DNA of 64,000 nt from Candidatus Saccharimonadales bacterium (GTDB lineage: Bacteria > Patescibacteriota > Saccharimonadia > Saccharimonadales > SZUA-47), in contig JBGSRU010000002.1 of the NCBI GenBank assembly GCA_041737385.1, forward strand, positions 205,437 through 269,436, read 5' to 3'. Each line of letters begins with the position of its first letter. The stretch's first letter is position 1. Position numbers and translations under genes: made by a program. Positions 4,134-57,080 of the stretch are shown here, piece after piece. The notes below the pieces were generated by a model. It was not told the origin of the DNA, ran no database searches, and saw only the letters and a list, made by a program, of their open reading frames with translations.

Positions 4134-4871
4134 ATGTCATTCATAGAAATCACGTCTAAAAGTGCGCTTCAAATGTATAAGCATACGGAGAGGCCTATGC
4201 TTAGCTTAGACACTCTAAGCATAGTAATCCCTATAGAAGAGTGCGGCGAACCTTTAGTACCGTTGAAAGACTCTGGTCTATTGCTTGAGCCATTCTGGGA
4301 GGGTGAAAGAAATATTGAAGGTGATGCATATAAAAAGTATATTGAGTCACATTCTGAATTCGGCTTGCAACTACGTGAATCAGTATTTAAAAGGTTAGTA
4401 AAAGCTCGTTCCAAGTTGCCAAATGATTGGAAAATTGTAGTAAAAGCCGGGTTCAGGCCATTAAGTGTGCAGAAGAGTCTTTTTAAAGACTTTAAGCTAT
4501 ATCTTAAGGATAAACATCCTGACTGGTCACAAGAGCGAATTGTTTCAGAAACACGTTTAATGGTTAGCGACCCGTCACTTTTAACGCCGCCCCATACAGC
4601 TGGTGCTGCGGTAGATATTGAAGTTCGTCATTCATCTGGTTCCCTTGTTGATTTTGGGAGTAGAGCAAACAGTGACGGAGAGGTAGCGCACACTTTTTCT
4701 GCCGCAATCTCTAAAACGCAACAGGAAAATAGGATTACCTTATTAGAAGCTATGATAGATGTTGGGTTCGCTAACCTTGCCCAAGAATGGTGGCATTTTT
4801 CTTACGGGGATCAGTATTGGGCTGTATTCTATGACAAGCCAACTGCACTCTACGACACAGTAGAAGAGTAG
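4134..4871 (+). CDS. D-alanyl-D-alanine dipeptidase, VanX/DdpX-like (M15D)
   Basis: 245 aa. ...SDPS...PPHTAGAAVDIEV... and EWWHFSYGD match the VanX-family metal-binding and catalytic regions. Confidence 0.8.
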   Translation: MSFIEITSKSALQMYKHTERPMLSLDTLSIVIPIEECGEPLVPLKDSGLLLEPFWEGERNIEGDAYKKYIESHSEFGLQLRESVFKRLVKARSKLPNDWKIVVKAGFRPLSVQKSLFKDFKLYLKDKHPDWSQERIVSETRLMVSDPSLLTPPHTAGAAVDIEVRHSSGSLVDFGSRANSDGEVAHTFSAAISKTQQENRITLLEAMIDVGFANLAQEWWHFSYGDQYWAVFYDKPTALYDTVEE

Positions 4872-4876
4872 GGTGC

Positions 4877-4915
4877 TTGACATATAGCATACTAGTATGC
4901 TAGTATATTAGTATG
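4877..4915 (+). promoter_or_regulatory. Promoter with three 8-bp-phased CTAG/TTAG repeats in front of the TrpR-family gene
   Basis: TTGACA 4877-4882, 18-nt spacer, TAGTAT 4901-4906, ATG 4913 only 6 nt later. Half sites ACTAGT 4891-4896, GCTAGT 4899-4904 and ATTAGT 4907-4912. CATACTAGTATG is a perfect 12-nt palindrome. Confidence 0.5.
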
Positions 4916-5161
4916 AGTAATTTTAGTTCAGTCGTAGAAATCATTAATGCTATCAGGGATAAGGAAGTCCTTGAAGATTTTTTAGTGGGTATAACAACGC
5001 CTAAAGAACGATTAGAAATAGGCCAAAGGCTGGAGATAGTTGAACGACTTCTCAAGAAAGAACCTCAGCATAAAATAGCTGAGGTTCTTGGTGTGGGTGT
5101 TGCTACTGTTACACGAGGCTCTAAAGAGCTACAAGCTGGAAAATTTAAGGTTCTTCGGTAA
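4913..5161 (+). CDS. TrpR-family (YerC/YecD-like) helix-turn-helix protein
   Basis: 82 aa. ...TPKERLEIGQRLEIV..L......QHKIAEVLGVGVATVTRGSKEL is typical of the YerC/YecD Trp-repressor-like family. Confidence 0.8.
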   Translation: MSNFSSVVEIINAIRDKEVLEDFLVGITTPKERLEIGQRLEIVERLLKKEPQHKIAEVLGVGVATVTRGSKELQAGKFKVLR

Positions 5162-5166
5162 ATGTT

Positions 5167-5300
5167 ATGAAAACGAGCATGACTATTACTAACTACGGTC
5201 AATTTGGCTCATGGCAAAACGTCACACTGCGTTGGCGGAGCTGCTCTATTTGATTTGAAATATAAATATAGAAATTATATCCGCCAACAGGCGGTTTTTT
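5167..5300 (+). promoter_or_regulatory. Short-ORF leader 3: 28-codon ORF plus antiterminator/terminator
   Basis: ORF 5167-5253 encodes MKTSMTITNYGQFGSWQNVTLRWRSCSI. Hairpin CCGCC 5281-5285 / GGCGG 5290-5294 is followed by T6. GTTGGCGGA 5231-5239 is the exact complement of TCCGCCAAC 5280-5288. Confidence 0.5.
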
Positions 5301-5359
5301 AATGTAAAGAAATATAGATAAAAATAATCATGAGGTGAAAACCTCAAAGGATAAATACT

Positions 5360-6403
5360 ATGAGTGACTTTGAAGTTAGAGAGCAAAATGAAGTAGAAGA
5401 ATTAGTGCAACAGTTAATTGTTGATCTTCCTAGCTTAAATACAGTCGAAGAACTGGAACAACTGGAAGAACAAGGATATAACGTCAGAAGGGGTCTTGGT
5501 AGCCGAATAGATCCTAGCTTGATAAGAACAGAAAGGGATAGAATGAAAATAGTTAACAAGTCCCAGATAACTAAGGCAAAAGAATTTCATTCTACGGTTT
5601 CAGATGATGAAGTTTCTGAAGCATACAATGCCGCTTCGATAATAGGAGCAGAAATAGTGCTAGATTTCACACTAGACGCTCCAGTGGGTATATCGGTATG
5701 CGAGCGTAATCCAAAATTTGAGTTACCACTGTTGGCAAGCTTCGGAACGATTGCTGCTTTTGATGGAGTGCCGGTGCACTTTGTGGTGCCGTGTTGTCCA
5801 GATAATGACCTATATAAGCTTGGTAGTGGTTTGGGTAGAATAGTGCCAAAAGGATTGTCGGCTTCAGAAATGATACATGATCGTATGTCTTTGTTTGGAA
5901 TAAAATCTATGTTTGATATCCAACTAGCCGATGTAGAAGCTAGTGATCCGGTTTTACTGCGTGCAATGAAAGAAACTACTGAGAGTTTCCTGGAAAAGGT
6001 TTCTGGCACCATGGACGCAACGCGCGCTGAGGTAGACCGAATGGGTGCGTCAGAGTATATGGCTGTCTCATCTATGCAAGATGCGTTTAATTTAAGAGGA
6101 ATTAACTATCTGCAAACTCAATCCAGAGCAGCAGACGCTGTAATAAAAACTAGCAACAAAGGAGTCAAAAACACTTATAACGAATTGTTGTGTGAGCGTG
6201 AAAAACTTAGAGATTTTGCGGGTTTTGATGAAAAAGAAAAGCGAGATCTAGTGGCCTCTGAGTTAGCAGGATACGCTGCATATGGTGAAATGGTTGACGG
6301 CAAGTCTATAATTCTTTCGCCTGATGCAGTTAGCGCAGTGCCTGCATACCACTATTTAATTACTGATAAAAAGGGCTATAGCCCCGTAATGTATATGAGA
6401 TAA
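5360..6403 (+). CDS. Hypothetical protein (347 aa)
   Basis: Long ORF with an AAAGGA RBS. No domain recognised. Confidence 0.7.
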   Translation: MSDFEVREQNEVEELVQQLIVDLPSLNTVEELEQLEEQGYNVRRGLGSRIDPSLIRTERDRMKIVNKSQITKAKEFHSTVSDDEVSEAYNAASIIGAEIVLDFTLDAPVGISVCERNPKFELPLLASFGTIAAFDGVPVHFVVPCCPDNDLYKLGSGLGRIVPKGLSASEMIHDRMSLFGIKSMFDIQLADVEASDPVLLRAMKETTESFLEKVSGTMDATRAEVDRMGASEYMAVSSMQDAFNLRGINYLQTQSRAADAVIKTSNKGVKNTYNELLCEREKLRDFAGFDEKEKRDLVASELAGYAAYGEMVDGKSIILSPDAVSAVPAYHYLITDKKGYSPVMYMR

Positions 6404-6407
6404 GCAA

Positions 6408-7181
6408 ATGAAAAAACTACATGAAGTAATAGGTTTAATAGAAAAATTTGCACCACCAAATCTTGCTTTTTTTGATTATGTTGGGCTTCTGCAGGGTTTA
6501 CCAAGCCAAGAAGTAAAGAAAATTGGCATCACTTTAGACTATTCACTGCAAGCAATAGATAAAGCAGTGAGTCAAAACTGTGACTTGCTAATAACTCACC
6601 ACGGACCAGAAAAAAAAGAAAATCGACATTATGGCAATGATTTAAAAAAGTATAAAGCTGCTCAAAAAAACTCGCTTGCAGTTTATAGATGTCATCTTAG
6701 CCTCGATTTTTGTAGCTCTGGGATTATTGAAGAATTATGCAAACTTCTTGGTATTCCTGCGTCTCCTGTCGGGATAACCTATAACAATATAAAGTTAAAT
6801 GGCGCAGTAAGGTTAGCGGAAAATTACCCTATGACGCTTAATGATTTAGTGAAGCGAACTAAGGTTTTAAATTACCCCTACCTAAGGCTTGCCGGACCTA
6901 TAAAAGAGAAATTTAGTAGGATTGCTATAACTTCTGGGCAGGGATTTATATCTGAGTTTTTTGATCAGCTTTTACCTGATATATACATTGCGGGTGAATT
7001 TGAACAAGAAGCAACAAAATATGCTGAAGATTTAGGTATAATGCTTGTCGAGATTTCTCATCATGCTAGTGAGTCAAAGCCACTCGAAAATGTAGCAAAG
7101 ACTCTTGAGAAGTACTTAGGAGTTGAAGTAGTACACGTTGAAGTACCTGATACTATTAGAGTAATACATACGGTTCATTAA
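6408..7181 (+). CDS. NIF3-family dinuclear metal-centre protein
   Basis: 257 aa. LLITHHGP near the N-terminus and EISHHASE near the C-terminus are typical of NIF3/YbgI proteins. Confidence 0.8.
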   Translation: MKKLHEVIGLIEKFAPPNLAFFDYVGLLQGLPSQEVKKIGITLDYSLQAIDKAVSQNCDLLITHHGPEKKENRHYGNDLKKYKAAQKNSLAVYRCHLSLDFCSSGIIEELCKLLGIPASPVGITYNNIKLNGAVRLAENYPMTLNDLVKRTKVLNYPYLRLAGPIKEKFSRIAITSGQGFISEFFDQLLPDIYIAGEFEQEATKYAEDLGIMLVEISHHASESKPLENVAKTLEKYLGVEVVHVEVPDTIRVIHTVH

Positions 7182-7200
7182 CAGATTAAGGAGTGTTACA

Positions 7201-8241
7201 ATGAGAGCAATGAATAAACAAGTAATATTAACTGGTCTTCGGACGAATGCTGACTATCATCTTGGTAATTATATAGGTGCACTACTTCCAATGGTGCAAA
7301 TGGTAGAGAAACACGCAGCTGACTATCAAATAAATCTGTTTGCACCCGACCTACACAGTTTTACTACACCTATTGAGCATTGTGAGTTTTACCAGCAAAC
7401 AATAGAAAACCTCAAACTGTTTGTCGCAGCTGGTTTCCCAATCGATAACGAAAATGTCTATTTGTACCGTCAAAGTCGTGTTCCTGCGCATTCGGAACTT
7501 GCTTGGATTTTGACAAATTTTACTGGTTTTGGTGAAATGGGACGGATGGTCGAATTTAAAGATAAAGCGGAACGACTCAGCGAAGATCGTGTATCAGTTG
7601 GACTATTTGAGTATCCAATACTCATGGCGGCAGATATACTTTTATACGGCGCAAAATATATACCTCTAGGTGAAGACCAGAGACAACACCTAGAATTTAC
7701 GCGGGATATTGCGCAAAGAATGAACAGCCAGTTTGGGGAGTTGTTTGTTGTTCCTGAAAATCTTGAAAATCAGCAAAAGTTTATCGATAGAGACTCTGCC
7801 CCGAGAATTAGAAGCTTACGAGATCCTACAAAAAAGATGAGTAAATCTGTTGAAGATCCTGCAGGAACGATTAAGCTTAGTGATTCATCTGATGATGCAA
7901 AGAAGAAGATTATGAGCGCTACAACAGATAATGTAGGCGCTGTTCATTTCGATTGGGATAATCAGCCTGGCGTAACGAATTTACTACAAATACTCGCACT
8001 TCTATCAGGGAGAGCTCAAACTGAAGTAAATGCTGAATGGGAAGGAAATGAACGCTACGGCGATCTAAAGAAAGCTGTAGCTGAAGTCGTTGCTAAAACG
8101 CTAACATCTATTCAAGAAAAGATGAAACTGATAGATGAGAACGAACTTATCATGAAAATTGAATCAAGCGAAGAGTTTATGAACGTGCAAGCAAATGACA
8201 CTCTTTTTAAAGTGCAAAAAGCTATTGGTCTTAGAGAGTAG
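7201..8241 (+). CDS. trpS: Tryptophan--tRNA ligase
   Basis: 346 aa. HLGNY (HIGH-type) and KMSKS motifs, with class I TrpRS length and layout. AAGGAG RBS. Confidence 0.95.
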   Translation: MRAMNKQVILTGLRTNADYHLGNYIGALLPMVQMVEKHAADYQINLFAPDLHSFTTPIEHCEFYQQTIENLKLFVAAGFPIDNENVYLYRQSRVPAHSELAWILTNFTGFGEMGRMVEFKDKAERLSEDRVSVGLFEYPILMAADILLYGAKYIPLGEDQRQHLEFTRDIAQRMNSQFGELFVVPENLENQQKFIDRDSAPRIRSLRDPTKKMSKSVEDPAGTIKLSDSSDDAKKKIMSATTDNVGAVHFDWDNQPGVTNLLQILALLSGRAQTEVNAEWEGNERYGDLKKAVAEVVAKTLTSIQEKMKLIDENELIMKIESSEEFMNVQANDTLFKVQKAIGLRE

Positions 8242-8244
8242 GAT

Positions 8245-9108
8245 ATGGCTAAAGAAACTATAATCATCACTGATGACGATGGAGTTGTTAGAGTAGATAA
8301 ATATTTAGCTAACAAGTTTCCTGAGTATTCTCGTGCAGCTTTAGCTAAGTTATTTACATTAAATCTAATTAAACTTAACGGTGAATCAATCCAGCCCGGT
8401 TATAAACTGAAGCCTGGAGCTGAAATAGAGTACGACCTTGGGCCTTTGCAAGAAAAACCTGAAGTTATACCACTTCCAATAATATACGAAGACAGTAATG
8501 TTCTCGTCGTTGATAAGCCAGTTGGAATTATTTCTCATGCCCGCGGTAAGTTCTGGCAAGAAGCATCAGTAGCTAGTTTTATCCGCGATAGAATAAGTGG
8601 GATGGACGGAGAGCGTGGCGGCATCGTGCATCGTCTGGATAGGGCCACGAGTGGTGTTATGATCTGTGCGAAGAACGAAGCTACATTGAAATTTTTGCAA
8701 AAACAGTTTAGTGATAGAAAAGTGCAAAAAACTTATATTGCAGTTGTTGCGGGAATACCTAAACTAGAAGAAGCAATCATAGATGCTCCTATTGGGCGAG
8801 ACTTCAAAGATCCAAAGCGGTTCAGGGTAAGTAGTGACGGTAAGCAATCACAAACAACGTATAAAGTTATTAAACATAATGAACATTTTGCGACGTTAGA
8901 ATTAACGCCCAAAACCGGTAGAACACACCAGCTGAGAGTACATTTGCAGTACATAAAGCATCCTATTGTCGGTGATCCGCTATATAGCGATAAGTCTTAC
9001 ATTCGGTTGCTTCTGCATGCAAGAAGCCTGACGATACAGCTACCTACTAATGAAATCAAGACATTTACTGCAGAAATACCTAAAGAATTTGAAGAAATAT
9101 ATACATAA
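8245..9108 (+). CDS. rluD: RluA-family pseudouridine synthase with S4 domain (RluD-like)
   Basis: 287 aa. N-terminal S4-like R.DK.L region, catalytic HRLDRATSGV motif, and TGRTHQLRVH. Confidence 0.9.
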   Translation: MAKETIIITDDDGVVRVDKYLANKFPEYSRAALAKLFTLNLIKLNGESIQPGYKLKPGAEIEYDLGPLQEKPEVIPLPIIYEDSNVLVVDKPVGIISHARGKFWQEASVASFIRDRISGMDGERGGIVHRLDRATSGVMICAKNEATLKFLQKQFSDRKVQKTYIAVVAGIPKLEEAIIDAPIGRDFKDPKRFRVSSDGKQSQTTYKVIKHNEHFATLELTPKTGRTHQLRVHLQYIKHPIVGDPLYSDKSYIRLLLHARSLTIQLPTNEIKTFTAEIPKEFEEIYT

Positions 9109-44433: not shown

Positions 44434-44462
44434 TTGAGTCAACTATCTGCATATGTTATAAT
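44434..44462 (+). promoter_or_regulatory. Promoter of the rplJ-rplL operon
   Basis: TTGAGT 44434-44439, 17-nt spacer, TATAAT 44457-44462. Confidence 0.55.
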
Positions 44463-44790
44463 TGTTTTGTTACCGAAGACAGTGGCTGCCATAGAATAAG
44501 GCTTAATTGTGCCACCGAGGCGATATGATTAGCAATAATCATAATTGTATTCGAGCACTAGGATGCGTCTTCTGGATTAACCCAAGGAGACGTTTTTTAT
44601 TTCTCGGTAACAAATCACTAAAATAGGTCGATAGATTAGTGAAAAAACTAATGACAAAGGAAGGATGCTTTACTGCAGCTCTTGTAGCCAATAGGAAAAA
44701 GAGCAGCCGGAAGAGAAGATTCATTCGACTCTACCGCGCGCCTAAGAAAAAACCATAGGTTTTGTCTTGAGTAGCGAAGCGGAATATTAA
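44463..44790 (+). promoter_or_regulatory. Long rplJ 5' leader with internal terminator-like hairpin (candidate L10-type autoregulatory leader)
   Basis: About 320 nt lie between the promoter and the rplJ ATG. CGTCTTC 44566-44572 pairs with GGAGACG 44586-44592, followed by T6. Position is analogous to the L10 leaders of other bacteria. The family assignment was not verified. Confidence 0.4.
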
Positions 44791-55985: not shown

Positions 55986-57080
55986 TTAAACTTCTTTTAT
56001 CTCTTCTTTGTTCTCAAGGTAGTTATCGAGTAACACTTTCAGACAGCCAGCGGCAGGTATGGCGACGAATGCCCCGAGGATGCCACCAAACCCAACACCG
56101 AGAATAGCTGCAATGAACACTAACAGAGGGGTTAATTCATTGCCTTTCGATTGTATGTACGGTTGGATGGTAACATTTTCAACCTGTTGATAGATTATAA
56201 AATAAGCAGCCATAACAAGCGCAAGTGGGACACTCGCAAACAAACTAAATAAAACAACAGCAGCAGCCCCGAGAGTTGCTCCAAACATAGGAATCAACCC
56301 AAACAAGAATACAAGGCCACCAAGCGCAATTGCATTTATAGAGTTTACATCAAATATGGTTGTCGTTATGAGAATAGCGACAATTGCGAAGCTAGAACCT
56401 ATACCAGCTATGACCACCTGACCGTTAACATAGTTTTTCACGATACCGTACATTTTCAAGGCAATTTTTTTAGATCGAGCACGATTTTTGTGCGGAACTC
56501 GTTTCCAAAATGTTTCTGTCCATCGAGGACCCTCTATCAGCATCATAAACGTTAAGACTAACACGGTAAGTATAGAAATAAGGTTTGACACTACTCTGTT
56601 TGCGAGGGATACTGCTTGACCTCCAACAGATGAAAAATCTGAAGCCCAGTTTCGTGCAAATTCATTCACTTGGTCTTCAAGTTCATATCTTCTTACAAAA
56701 TCTCCAACAGCACCCTCGTTGTTATTTAAATCTTCAACAGTCTGAGGCACGTCGTTGATGAATTCTCTTGTTTGATTTATTAGAGGAGGTAAAACGAGGA
56801 AGAAAAAACCAATGAGAACAGACATAACTGCAACATATGCGATTGCTGTTGCTTTAGTTCTATCTTTACTTTTTAGCTTTTTTGATACCCAATTTACCGC
56901 TTGATTTAACGCCAGTGCTAGGAAAAAAGACACAAAAATAAGCGTCAGAGGGTGAATAATATTCTCAAAAAATCGTACTAGTAAAATAGTTGCTATACCA
57001 AACCCAATAACTCTCACAATTGTATTATTAGAAATAGTTATTTCTAGCGCTTTTTTATCTTTATTAAACATATAGGCCAT
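55986..57080 (-). CDS. AI-2E family (PerM-like) transporter
   Basis: 364 aa with about 8 TM segments and the typical family layout. Confidence 0.8.
   Translation of the reverse strand: MAYMFNKDKKALEITISNNTIVRVIGFGIATILLVRFFENIIHPLTLIFVSFFLALALNQAVNWVSKKLKSKDRTKATAIAYVAVMSVLIGFFFLVLPPLINQTREFINDVPQTVEDLNNNEGAVGDFVRRYELEDQVNEFARNWASDFSSVGGQAVSLANRVVSNLISILTVLVLTFMMLIEGPRWTETFWKRVPHKNRARSKKIALKMYGIVKNYVNGQVVIAGIGSSFAIVAILITTTIFDVNSINAIALGGLVFLFGLIPMFGATLGAAAVVLFSLFASVPLALVMAAYFIIYQQVENVTIQPYIQSKGNELTPLLVFIAAILGVGFGGILGAFVAIPAAGCLKVLLDNYLENKEEIKEV

Follow-up and report, generated by a model that had tools for sequence, protein, structure and literature searches.

What does the short intergenic region in front of a TrpR-family gene control in this genome, and to what signal does it respond? 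The gene, here called trpR, lies near one end of the 64 kb stretch of Candidatus Saccharimonadales DNA that we analyzed (hereafter the window). A reading made from the letters alone, hereafter the sequence-only reading, had treated it as a stand-alone gene that might repress itself through phased repeats; it missed a leader ORF with Trp codons, an attenuator and a link to trpS, all of which lie downstream.

Our analysis leads us to consider it likely, with good confidence, that positions 4877-5300 form a two-stage tryptophan switch heading an operon of trpR, trpL, a 347-aa orphan gene, a NIF3 gene, trpS and perhaps others (Table 1). A sigma-70-type promoter (TTGACA-18-TGnTAGTAT) would start transcription at the trpR ATG or no more than about 1 nt from it, yielding a leaderless mRNA. 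We infer that tryptophan acts as the corepressor, and that Trp-bound TrpR dimers sit in tandem on CTAG-type half-sites spaced 8 bp apart (core 4889-4906; flanks 4883-4890 and 4907-4914). By overlapping the spacer, the -10 box and the start point, bound TrpR would shut out RNA polymerase, and repression would then strike trpR itself and all genes co-transcribed with it.

The second stage would depend on ribosomes that have finished trpR and reinitiate 6 nt further on, at a 28-codon leader ORF with two Trp codons. When charged tRNA-Trp is scarce, the ribosome would stall at the first leader Trp codon (5212) and leave 5231-5239 free to pair with 5280-5288, so that no terminator would form and transcription would read through into the downstream genes, including trpS. 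When tryptophan is plentiful, a ribosome at the leader stop (5251) would cover the 5231-5239 strand, and the CCGCC/GGCGG hairpin with its T6 run would terminate transcription. Two tryptophan-sensing switches would in this way probably control the downstream genes, trpS among them.

Table 1. Elements of the trpR control region and operon, in window coordinates
Feature	Position	Strand	Basis
-35 box TTGACA of the trpR promoter	4877-4882	+	Direct reading and promoter scan
Operator array, four 8-bp units TATAGCAT / ACTAGTAT / GCTAGTAT / ATTAGTAT	4883-4914	+	Direct reading and Tandem Repeats Finder
Conserved operator core ACTAGTATGCTAGTA, two CTAG steps 8 bp apart	4891-4905	+	80/80 homologous loci, at most 2 mismatches
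Extended -10 box TGcTAGTAT, inside the operator	4898-4906	+	Direct reading and promoter scan
trpR, 82-aa TrpR-family repressor	4913-5161	+	Pfam PF01371, NCBIfam TrpR and PDB matches
trpL-like leader ORF MKTSMTITNYGQFGSWQNVTLRWRSCSI	5167-5253	+	Homologous leader ORFs in 28 Saccharibacteria loci
Antiterminator 5' strand GUUGGCGGA, including the second Trp codon	5231-5239	+	Minimum-free-energy pairing with 5280-5288
Intrinsic terminator: CCGCC (5281-5285), loop AACA, GGCGG (5290-5294), T6 (5295-5300)	5280-5300	+	Terminator scan
347-aa orphan, first gene past the attenuator	5360-6403	+	Predicted fold like class-I aaRS, cyclodipeptide synthase and isonitrile synthase
NIF3/DUF34-family gene	6408-7181	+	Pfam PF01784, NCBIfam TIGR00486; 4 nt after the orphan gene
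trpS (tryptophan--tRNA ligase)	7201-8241	+	NCBIfam TIGR00233, 269.5 bits against a cut-off of 176.75; 19 nt after the NIF3 gene

The repressor and the genes that follow it

The trpR start codon is backed by the aligned N-termini of homologues, and the product scores 63.5 bits against Pfam PF01371 (Trp_repressor; gathering threshold 27) over residues 4-76. The best NCBIfam model is TIGR01321 (TrpR) at 53.0 bits, a score that lies below the equivalog cut-off of 67.25, while the YerC/YecD model TIGR02531 reaches 21.1 bits against a cut-off of 42.2. The nearest PDB structures are those of E. coli TrpR (1tro/1trr, E = 5e-8), the YerC-like 3frw and 3g1c following at only E = 3e-4. YerC/YecD proteins belong to the same Pfam superfamily and are similarly small, and the sequence-only reading had labelled the protein YerC/YecD-like; the scores of 21 against 53 bits, and 3e-4 against 5e-8, rule this identity out. 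Judged by similarity, the 82-aa protein is closer to true TrpR and is not to be filed under YerC/YecD.

The corepressor-pocket and DNA-reading residues of E. coli TrpR, T44, R54, T81, T83, R84, G85 and S86, have T29, R39, T65, T67, R68, G69 and S70 as their aligned counterparts, which are invariant or nearly so in 28 homologues. In addition to its family, the protein shares with E. coli TrpR a near-identical recognition helix (ATVTRGS against ATITRGS). It differs in its length, in the absence of the N-terminal arm, in its score below the equivalog cut-off and in two substitutions, R69 to H53 and S88 to E72; R69 of the E. coli protein presumably contacts the outer G. The window protein contains no Trp residue.

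Downstream of trpR, the terminator scan returned no + strand terminator from 5300 to 8600. Among 81 homologous loci, the four genes that follow trpR include trpS (26 loci), trpB (17), trpE (15), trpC (11), trpA (10) and trpG (6), and trpS lies within 4 kb of trpR in 27 of 80 loci, being downstream on the same strand in 26. This co-occurrence with trp genes suggests a TrpR-controlled set of tryptophan-related genes at the level of the family, to which the window would contribute trpS as its linked gene. Because trpS is essential, some constitutive expression of it must exist, either by basal read-through or from an internal promoter; no internal promoter for trpS scored above chance in the window. 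The tRNA genes past the operon are those for Tyr and Thr, not Trp.

Leader ORF and attenuator

The leader ORF begins 6 nt past the trpR stop codon and runs for 28 codons, with Trp codons at 5212-5214 and 5233-5235 and its stop codon at 5251. Homologous leader ORFs, ending in GAWWNSxYxWESI and a stop codon and containing two or three Trp codons, have their ATG between -7 and +7 nt of the trpR stop in all 28 Saccharibacteria loci. A leader start held within 7 nt of the trpR stop indicates that translation of the leader may be coupled to that of trpR.

The 5' arm of the terminator (hairpin energy -9.0 kcal/mol) also serves as the antiterminator 3' strand UCCGCCAAC at 5280-5288, and pairing of this strand with 5231-5239 is the minimum-free-energy structure of the window leader. 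Complementarity between the window antiterminator strand and its own terminator extends over 9 bp, whereas with the terminators of relatives it averages 3.7-4.6 bp, and a three-strand compensatory change from GGGAG/CTCCC/GGGAG to GGCGG/CCGCC/GGCGG has taken place in the window. We judged compensation from codon-anchored tables and from own-versus-cross helix lengths; formal covariation counting was dropped, MAFFT having placed the window GGCGG one column off the GGGAG of the relatives. In every locus, the 3' part of the leader complements the terminator 5' arm.

For the window leader, constrained folding predicts the antiterminator if the RNA is free or a ribosome occupies W16; moving the ribosome to the stop codon gives the terminator, which forms only when 5231/5236-5266 is masked, as it would be by a ribosome at the leader stop. 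Counted from the end of the antiterminator strand, that stop is 11 nt further on, whereas most relatives have it at 4-6 nt, so masking by the terminating ribosome would be only partial. The relatives L004, L007, L009, L021 and L204 form a classical 1:2 hairpin that includes UGGUGG codons. In the window the Trp codons are single rather than tandem and the 1:2 hairpin is absent, a weak 4-bp hairpin being found at the first Trp codon. In folds that place a ribosome at that codon, the terminator is still the minimum-free-energy structure in 18 of 25 loci. Among relatives, only a minority show clear predicted thermodynamic support for the antiterminator, as the window does, and the attenuation model needs a kinetic, order-of-synthesis argument of the kind used for E. 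coli trpL.

This persistence of the terminator speaks for another arrangement, in which operator and autoregulation exist as described, whereas the small ORF and hairpin only close a trpR unit of one gene. No Trp-dependent attenuation would then take place, and a separate promoter would serve the downstream genes, trpS among them. Such a promoter could be held by the AT-rich stretch 5301-5359 with its hairpin, and the downstream cargo, which differs between close relatives, could be a set of unrelated neighbours. Against this stand a conserved leader ORF with two to three Trp codons and an ATG within 7 nt of the trpR stop in 28/28 loci, and a leader 3' end that everywhere complements the terminator 5' arm and does so in the window through compensatory changes. 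The 1:2 hairpins over UGGUGG codons in relatives and the enrichment of trpS and trp biosynthesis genes among the cargo point the same way, as does the finding that in other lineages different Trp-sensing leaders (other Trp-codon ORFs, a T-box-like element) occupy the same place. We therefore regard the single-gene arrangement as unlikely and favor tryptophan-dependent attenuation ahead of the downstream genes.

Searches with Rfam gave no leader family matching 4700-5500 at E <= 1, none over the whole window at gathering score except an unrelated L10 leader, and no known leader or riboswitch family in the loci L099, L119, L137 and L149. In the window, a further hairpin at 5331-5346 lies in the AT-rich 60 nt (5301-5359) past the terminator.

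Promoter, leaderless start and operator

Direct reading confirmed the promoter layout given in the sequence-only reading: an 18-nt spacer (4883-4900) separates TTGACA from TAGTAT (4901-4906), and 6 nt (ATTAGT) separate the latter from the trpR ATG at 4913. A TG at 4898-4899 makes the -10 box an extended one, and a consensus scan rates the promoter as a 10/12 match with TG. The whole intergenic region upstream of trpR measures 41 nt. Among homologous loci, TTGACA with at most one mismatch stands 5' of the operator core in 66 of 81, in two fixed spacing classes, and the distance from the -10 box to the start is 6-7 nt in both classes; Saccharibacteria loci keep the -10 box 17-18 nt from TTGACA and 6 nt from the ATG.

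No Shine-Dalgarno motif is present at 4897-4909, and a Shine-Dalgarno-like GGAG, GAGG or AGGA occurs upstream of trpR homologues in only 2 of 79 loci. Only 15 of the 53 long ORFs in the window carry such a motif, a modest use overall that makes its absence at trpR weak, non-discriminating evidence. It is the constant 6-7 nt between -10 box and start in both spacing classes, taken together with the count of 2/79 and the 41-nt intergenic region, that indirectly supports a trpR mRNA that is probably leaderless or nearly so, as the sequence-only reading had suggested.

Were most trpR transcripts instead to originate further upstream, for example as read-through of the peptidase gene at 4134-4871, the mRNA would not be leaderless and the repeats would lie in a 5' UTR, to act at the RNA level or as a roadblock. 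The terminator scan indeed returned nothing from the upstream stop codon (4871) to trpR, and the 18-bp palindrome described below could fold as an RNA hairpin too. Against this, a near-consensus promoter, TTGACA-17/18-(TGn)TAGTAT or TATAAT, keeps its register with the repeats in 66/81 loci, although the genes upstream of it are unrelated from locus to locus; the distance to the ATG is fixed, and Shine-Dalgarno motifs are nearly absent. On a long transcript, an internal start codon that lacks a Shine-Dalgarno motif would be translated poorly. We consider transcription mainly from upstream to be improbable, and a start at or next to the ATG remains our preferred reading.

The operator array extends from the spacer across the -10 box and into the trpR start codon, of which it takes in the first two bases. 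The three repeats on which the sequence-only reading was built, ACTAGT-AT / GCTAGT-AT / ATTAGT-AT, are exact at 4891-4914 (Tandem Repeats Finder: period 8, 3.0 copies), but a fourth, weaker unit, TATAGCAT, precedes them at 4883-4890, so that TAGYAT recurs four times at exact 8-bp spacing (4885-4914). Likewise the 12-bp palindrome that had been noted is present, but is only part of a perfect 18-bp palindrome, TAGCATACTAGTATGCTA, at 4885-4902. The interval 4889-4906, with ATACTAGTA and TGCTAGTAT as its halves, contains the core and is symmetric at 16 of 18 positions, centred between the two CTAGs. Allowing up to three mismatches, the four-unit pattern was found once in the window and never in 100 dinucleotide-preserving shuffles, in keeping with the uniqueness already claimed for the phased repeat; CTAG-N4-CTAG by itself is not significant (1 found in the window, 0.96 expected).

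No other good copy of the core occurs in the 64 kb. The best other match in the window, at 56976 with two mismatches, was rejected as a second operator, as it lies inside a coding region; a site at 7151, just before trpS, has three mismatches and is at chance level (13 found, 7.6 expected).

Comparison with the loci of homologues having 48-72% protein identity to the window protein places the operator on firmer ground. The motif ACTAGTAT[GA][CA]TAGTA is found with at most two mismatches upstream of 80/80 trpR homologues, in Saccharibacteria and other Patescibacteria, flanked by a TTGACA box on one side and, on the other, by a start codon 6-7 nt past the -10 box. Upstream conservation is restricted to this element: information content is highest in the core, where positions reach up to 2.5 bits, and falls to about 0 outside -8..+16. 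The units conserved in relatives are 1-3 (4883-4906). Unit 4 (4907-4914), which the sequence-only reading had counted as the third of its array, is missing from the closest relatives. The 16-nt stretch 4889-4904, which contains the core, is identical at 12 of 16 positions to the E. coli TrpR motif GTACTAGTTAACTAGT (PMC2811016).

When the window and 620 kb of related loci were scanned with a weight matrix, the only hits were sites upstream of trpR and one weak site (L071:2060), before an unrelated membrane-protein gene. The motif recurs in L149, whose trpR is not the first gene: there it stands before a predicted leaderless trpL-trpBA operon that follows trpS-trpR, and L099, L119 and L137 have a similar arrangement. 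By itself, the operator motif is not diagnostic of TrpR loci, because the exact 16-mer TACTAGTATRMTAGTA occurs in many metagenome contigs without a TrpR gene: only 13 of 80 sampled loci encode a TrpR homologue and 67 do not, most of the latter looking like chance or repeat-rich matches in unrelated DNA of 23-65% G+C. That scan was useful only for exposing the arrangement of L099, L119, L137 and L149.

These comparative data, namely the element in 80/80 loci, conservation confined to it and its recurrence before trpL-trpBA in one lineage, strongly support autoregulation of trpR from a putative leaderless promoter; with the 12/16 match to E. coli, they uphold the TrpR-style operator proposed in the sequence-only reading. 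It is very improbable that the repeats are only promoter architecture (-10, extended -10 and AT-rich spacer) or the site of another factor, since although the units hold the -10-like hexamers TAGTAT and TATAAT, and promoter function could explain part of the conservation, conservation is strongest at the C and G of both CTAG steps (2.5 bits each), bases that sigma-70 promoters do not need, in a dyad-symmetric element that has the 8-bp CTAG spacing of E. coli TrpR operators, stands beside TrpR homologues in 80/80 loci and recurs before trpL-trpBA.

Relation to known tryptophan switches

The window operator resembles those of E. coli TrpR in its CTAG steps 8 bp apart, its dyad symmetry and its overlap of the -10 region, and in both organisms the repressor gene is preceded by an operator of its own. 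Lawson and Carey reportedly showed in 1993 (PDB 1trr) that TrpR dimers bind 8-bp-phased half-sites in tandem. The differences from E. coli are a predicted leaderless mRNA and up to four phased units, and the position of trpR, which in E. coli is a separate single-gene unit and in the window is the first gene of a putatively regulated operon.

The candidate attenuator likewise shares with E. coli trpL a short Trp-codon leader ORF, alternative antiterminator and terminator pairings and a U-run terminator before the regulated genes, to which relatives add the full 1:2, 2:3 and 3:4 pairings with UGGUGG in segment 1; joined to promoter repression, attenuation would amount to two-level control as in the E. 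coli trp system. It departs from trpL in that the leader, in the window and relatives, has no ribosome-binding site of its own and starts no more than 7 nt from the trpR stop. In the window, furthermore, the 1:2 hairpin is lacking, the Trp codons are not adjacent and the second falls within the antiterminator strand, and instead of trpEDCBA the cargo consists of trpS and unknown genes.

In the trpRBA operon of Chlamydia trachomatis, trpR comes first and is TrpR-controlled at PtrpR, with a putative Trp-codon leader in the intergenic region before the cargo (PMC7755916). The window has the same promoter-proximal trpR, upstream operator and leader-containing intergenic region. The Chlamydia TrpL is, however, an atypical 59-aa peptide with non-consecutive Trp codons and a poor predicted attenuator, is unvalidated, and attenuation there is ascribed to YtgR (PMC7755916), whereas the leader described here is short, conserved in many genomes and apparently coupled to trpR. 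The cargo differs as well: it is not trpBA in the window, although trpBA is the cargo in relatives such as L029, L034 and L071. Streptomyces has a predicted classical Trp-codon attenuator upstream of its tryptophanyl-tRNA synthetase gene (PMC1262725), and shares with the window a Trp-codon attenuator 5' of trpS. That system belongs to another phylum and has neither a TrpR repressor and operator nor coupling to an upstream ORF, and trpS follows its attenuator directly, in the window only after two other genes.

Repression combined with attenuation and, in Chlamydia, trpR-first operons are thus already known. The predicted leaderless, translationally coupled trpR-trpL version in Patescibacteria did not turn up in the literature that we could search, and our search of the literature on Saccharibacteria and Patescibacteria found nothing on TrpR, a trp repressor or an attenuator. 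Saccharibacteria and other Patescibacteria have tiny genomes and mostly live on other bacteria, and to our knowledge almost nothing is known experimentally of their gene regulation. Four elements of the locus lend themselves to standard assays: a repressor whose ligand can be predicted, a precisely delimited operator kept in at least 80 genomes, the predicted leaderless promoter and the candidate leader-peptide attenuator. Our findings suggest that the TrpR/CTAG recognition code is common to Proteobacteria and Patescibacteria, and that the classic scheme of repression plus attenuation was reassembled here around the repressor gene, now the ORF translated first. They further indicate that tryptophanyl-tRNA synthetase is tuned to the tryptophan supply in these organisms.

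It is tempting to speculate, though only tentatively, that the trpR-trpL cassette is a portable tryptophan-starvation switch of Patescibacteria, in which the trpR ORF itself delivers the ribosome to the leader peptide, and in which a leaderless 70S start, termination and reinitiation couple repressor synthesis to attenuation mechanically. In Saccharibacteria, which obtain amino acids largely from their hosts, such a switch might control trpS together with changing uncharacterized enzymes, and these could form new routes of tryptophan scavenging or recycling. The cassette flags a set of unknown genes as possibly tryptophan-responsive, and hence gives a lead on how host-dependent bacteria get tryptophan. 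The uncharacterized cargo includes amino-acid racemases, PPDK_N-like proteins, DUF3182 with an aspartoacylase-like partner, and the aaRS/cyclodipeptide-synthase-like 347-aa orphan of the window. The orphan has no Pfam or NCBIfam match and only four clusters in the protein database; its AlphaFold2 model has a pLDDT of 83, and the likeness of fold is a prediction from Foldseek-PDB alone. Its sole homologue among the loci, in L027, likewise follows trpR-trpL.

The repressor and its phased promoter

The 82-aa product of ORF 4913-5161 scores 63.5 bits against Pfam Trp_repressor and 53 bits against the NCBIfam TrpR model (under the equivalog cut-off of 67.25), compared with only 21 bits against the YerC/YecD model. 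Among solved structures, those of E. coli TrpR match it best (E = 5e-8; the operator complexes 1tro and 1trr belong to this set), while YerC-like proteins follow at E = 3e-4. The label 'YerC/YecD-like', which the sequence-only reading had attached to it, was therefore wrong; judged by these matches, the protein is a short TrpR. Its N-terminus aligns at approximately residue 16 of E. coli TrpR, leaving it without the N-terminal arm. The alignment shows equivalents of E. coli T44, R54, T81, T83, R84, G85 and S86 to be retained, R69 to be replaced by H and S88 by E; the recognition helix reads ATVTRGS against ATITRGS in E. coli. The closest homologues with a named organism belong to Candidatus Saccharibacteria and other Patescibacteria, and 521 stretches in a species-level genome collection encode a relative with an identical recognition helix.

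Read directly, the DNA preceding trpR runs GTAGAAGAGTAG GGTGC TTGACA TATAGCATACTAGTATGC TAGTAT ATTAGT ATG, and a consensus promoter scan returned a 10/12 match with an extended -10 box. Both confirm the promoter layout proposed earlier. The 41 nt between the upstream stop codon and the trpR ATG are wholly occupied by promoter and repeats (see table). The three repeat units described previously are present with their exact 8-bp period, and are in fact preceded by a fourth, weaker one. The claim that the phased array was seen only here in the window also holds: the four-unit pattern occurs once and in 0/100 shuffles, even at 3 mismatches. CTAG-N4-CTAG by itself occurs at chance-level frequency in the window. 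Positions 4889-4906 (ATACTAGTA followed by TGCTAGTAT) are symmetric at 16/18 about the midpoint of the two CTAGs.

Features of the trpR locus and its downstream genes (window coordinates)
Feature	Position	Strand	Detail
Upstream gene, M15-peptidase-like, stop codon	4871		
-35 box TTGACA	4877-4882	+	direct reading
Weaker unit TATAGCAT	4883-4890		5' of the three stronger units
Perfect 18-bp palindrome TAGCATACTAGTATGCTA	4885-4902		
Units ACTAGTAT / GCTAGTAT / ATTAGTAT	4891-4914		period exactly 8 bp
-10 box TAGTAT	4901-4906	+	TG at 4898-4899 before it; 18-nt spacer from TTGACA
trpR start codon ATG	4913	+	direct reading
trpL-like leader ORF MKTSMTITNYGQFGSWQNVTLRWRSCSI	5167-5253	+	28 codons; starts 6 nt after trpR stop
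Leader Trp codons	5212, 5233	+	in leader ORF
Terminator CCGCC-AACA-GGCGG-T6	5281-5300	+	3' of leader ORF
Orphan gene, 347 aa	5360-6403	+	first after attenuator
NIF3 gene	6408-7181	+	4-nt gap from orphan gene
trpS	7201-8241	+	TIGR00233 269.5 bits; 19-nt gap from NIF3 gene

Conservation and probable identity of the operator

Comparison with the best 80 loci of the genome collection (protein identity 48-72%) revealed a 15-nt core, ACTAGTAT[GA][CA]TAGTA, upstream of trpR in 80/80 loci with at most two mismatches and in most cases none. An information-content profile anchored on this core confines conservation to -8..+16, where the C and G in each of the two CTAG steps reach as much as 2.5 bits, and shows approximately zero elsewhere, including immediately 5' and in the first codons. 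At 66/81 loci TTGACA (at most one mismatch) is found 5' of the core, at one of two spacings: in Saccharibacteria it is 7-8 nt from the core and the -10 box is TAGTAT with TG upstream, whereas in the Microgenomates-type class the spacing is 12 nt and the core ACTAGTATAATAGTA supplies a perfect TATAAT. The distance from -10 box to start codon is 6-7 nt in both, so that the fixed promoter-to-ATG distance needed by a leaderless start is kept in two different registers. A Shine-Dalgarno-like motif was found upstream in only 2/79 loci. The widely conserved units correspond to window positions 4883-4906; the third of the units singled out earlier (4907-4914) does not occur in the four closest relatives (80-83% identity) and seems to extend the array locally.

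The earlier idea of autoregulation through a TrpR-style operator is well borne out at the sequence level, and four lines lead us to regard the phased element as the TrpR operator: its association with the repressor gene, reuse of the motif before trpL-trpBA, E. coli geometry and the nearly unchanged recognition helix. No genome examined has the repressor gene without the element, and 620 kb of flanking DNA holds no second copy, bar one weak site. A metagenome scan for the exact operator 16-mer returned 80 loci, 67 of which lack a TrpR gene and for the most part resemble chance matches; the 16-mer is meaningful only in context. The same scan recovered a lineage (L099, L119, L137 and L149) in which trpS and trpR overlap with no operator between them, the operator sitting instead 3' of trpR in a TTG..-N17 promoter. 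Here the ATG within TAGTATG starts a small ORF, predicted to be leaderless, that contains tandem Trp codons (e.g. MMILSKNQQNKKQEIYKLNSWWGAKVNVFALFC). Terminator hairpins come next, and in L149 these precede a small zinc-ribbon ORF, trpB and trpA. This is an E. coli-type operator-trpL-trpBA operon, putatively under the same motif.

In the 1TRO/1TRR work, one TrpR dimer is reportedly centred between two CTAGs, with further dimers binding in tandem 8 bp away. On this geometry the window offers two good predicted dimer sites, one with its centre at 4897.5 (symmetric at 16/18 positions) and the other at 4905.5 (at 14/18), besides a weak one at 4889.5. Repressor bound there would occupy the promoter between a point just past the -35 box and the start codon. 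The window motif has the geometry of E. coli TrpR operators. It is identical at 12/16 positions to GTACTAGTTAACTAGT, which PMC2811016 gives as the E. coli TrpR motif.

Some further observations concern the comparison loci. A DnaA-box sequence, TTATCCACA (TTTTCCACA in L149), lies ~20-35 nt 5' of the trpL -35 box in L099, L119, L137 (2823-2831) and L149, perfect or near-perfect in all four. On metagenome contig L158 (6919-6990), TTGACA is followed by four phased TA(C/T)TAG units and the ATG of a 142-aa protein that has no match to the TrpR profile; it contains an LT.EE....KRL motif and may be a distant TrpR-like autoregulator. Contigs labelled 'uncultured Gammaproteobacteria' (L037, L050, L052-L055, L058, L060, L061, L065 and others) also carry trpR cassettes, with operator type and leader peptide close to Roizmanbacteria/Microgenomates loci (e.g. 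L037 against L043/L044); these taxonomic labels are doubtful.

A proposed repressor-coupled leader and attenuator

The sequence-only reading treated trpR as a single gene and missed a probable second switch, the leader ORF and terminator at 5167-5300. A homologous leader ORF (consensus ..ITNFGQQGAW(W/R)NSxYxWESI*) occurs in 28 Saccharibacteria loci, and in 28/28 its ATG lies -7 to +7 nt from the final base of the trpR stop, with overlaps such as ATGA and TAATG, a placement that indicates translational coupling to trpR. In all these loci the last-Trp codons UGG GAG UC are complementary to the terminator 5' arm GACUCCC. The window has all three strands altered jointly, from GGGAG/CTCCC/GGGAG to GGCGG/CCGCC/GGCGG, and its leader strand pairs over 9 bp with its own terminator against ~4 bp with those of relatives.

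Folding of window positions 5205-5302 gives the antiterminator as the minimum-free-energy structure (5226-5239 paired with 5280-5295, -24.8 kcal/mol); the isolated terminator hairpin has -9.0 kcal/mol. In constrained folds, the terminator hairpin forms once the footprint of a ribosome at the leader stop codon is masked, while masking a ribosome stalled at the first Trp codon retains the antiterminator. Relatives possess an additional 1:2 hairpin, in which UGGUGG codons pair with the GGGAGU strand, as in the classical four-segment attenuator design. In 18/25 loci the terminator is still the minimum-free-energy fold when the model places a ribosome on the first Trp codon; hence, outside the window, the attenuation model depends on order of synthesis, like E. 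coli trpL. The window leader is unusual in three respects: its Trp codons are single instead of tandem, it lacks a 1:2 hairpin, and its stop codon lies 11 nt past the antiterminator strand.

In the model we propose, Trp-TrpR would repress the leaderless promoter, limiting its own synthesis and the operon, and ribosomes completing trpR would reinitiate on trpL. When charged tRNA-Trp is scarce, stalling at codon 16 would favor the antiterminator and allow RNA polymerase to proceed into the orphan gene, NIF3 gene and trpS; when Trp suffices, the ribosome would reach the stop codon and the terminator would form. Because trpS is an essential gene, basal read-through or an internal promoter must exist. 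A promoter-like site at 6285-6312 does not exceed chance expectation, and the terminator scan found no + strand terminator between that of the attenuator and 8600.

A further hairpin, TGAGGT-gaaa-ACCTCA (5331-5346), lies between the terminator and the next gene's ribosome-binding site; it has no T-run on the + strand and is terminator-like only on the - strand. Rfam returned an L10 ribosomal-protein leader at 44455-44607 (RF00557, 63.6 bits) and no other curated cis-regulatory RNA in the window.

Precedents, cargo and alternative leaders

In E. coli, TrpR is autoregulated and repression is combined with attenuation. A trpR-first operon with a putative leader peptide in the intergenic region occurs in Chlamydia trachomatis, its TrpL being described as atypical and unvalidated (PMC7755916), and classical attenuators have been predicted upstream of trpS in Streptomyces (PMC1262725). 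These components are thus textbook or published; the window differs in its predicted leaderless start inside the operator, its putative coupling of leader peptide to repressor ORF, its phylum and its cargo. Our literature search, incomplete in coverage, found nothing linking Saccharibacteria or Patescibacteria with TrpR, trp repressor or tryptophan attenuator.

Clustering of the four ORFs 3' of trpR at 81 loci revealed trpS (26 loci), trpB (17), trpE (15), an amino-acid racemase (13), trpC (11), trpA (10) and trpG (6), with several uncharacterised families likewise recurrent. Representatives of trpS, trpB, trpA, trpG and the racemase exceed NCBIfam cut-offs, whereas trpE and trpC are best matches under equivalog cut-offs. 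At 27/80 loci trpS is found no more than 4 kb from trpR, on the same strand downstream in 26. This recurrence of trpS and trp biosynthesis genes argues that the repressor family is a genuine tryptophan regulator. In L068 (5057-6568), a 504-aa TrpRS carries a fused N-terminal YbaK/ProRS-editing-like domain.

The 347-aa orphan has no Pfam or NCBIfam match, and a search of 5.8 billion protein clusters places it in a family of just four clusters, with three other relatives only. AlphaFold2 gives a confident model (pLDDT 83, pTM 0.82), and Foldseek against the PDB returned an IsnA-type isonitrile synthase with bound L-tyrosine (9dh4, E = 6e-4), together with many cyclodipeptide synthases and TyrRS/TrpRS catalytic domains, at TM-scores of 0.4-0.6. 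These matches suggest an aaRS-like Rossmann fold, with an aromatic amino acid or aminoacyl-tRNA possibly the substrate, a lead more than a functional assignment; the protein may be such an enzyme under Trp control. Its sole homologue among the loci (L027, 43% identity) likewise directly follows trpR-trpL. In close relatives the same cassette precedes other cargo: uncharacterised 294- and 357-aa proteins with a racemase, or a PPDK_N-like protein with His_Phos_1 and trpS.

Other elements occupy the leader position elsewhere. Microgenomates-type loci (L042, L046, L047, L057, L061, L067, L080, L077, L072) have another conserved small ORF within ~120 nt 3' of trpR, MER..N.N.G.SGS..EGQGLVWL*, with one Trp as penultimate residue and no obvious T-run terminator; it could be a nascent-peptide/translational attenuator, or a conserved RNA read as protein. 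A T-box-like leader lies 3' of trpR in the Patescibacteria locus L048 (4251-4407; 36 bits, E = 1e-6, below the Rfam gathering score of 93), and UGG occurs within the stretch that aligns with the specifier loop. Such an element would represent a third type of Trp-sensing leader at the same position. Finally, in some Saccharibacteria trpR is followed directly, without a leader peptide, by trpC-trpB-trpA (L002, L003, L005, L025, L026, L033) or trpB-trpA (L029, L034), the start codons falling between -19 and +13 nt relative to the trpR stop, which would place the late Trp-synthesis steps of these reduced genomes under the operator alone.
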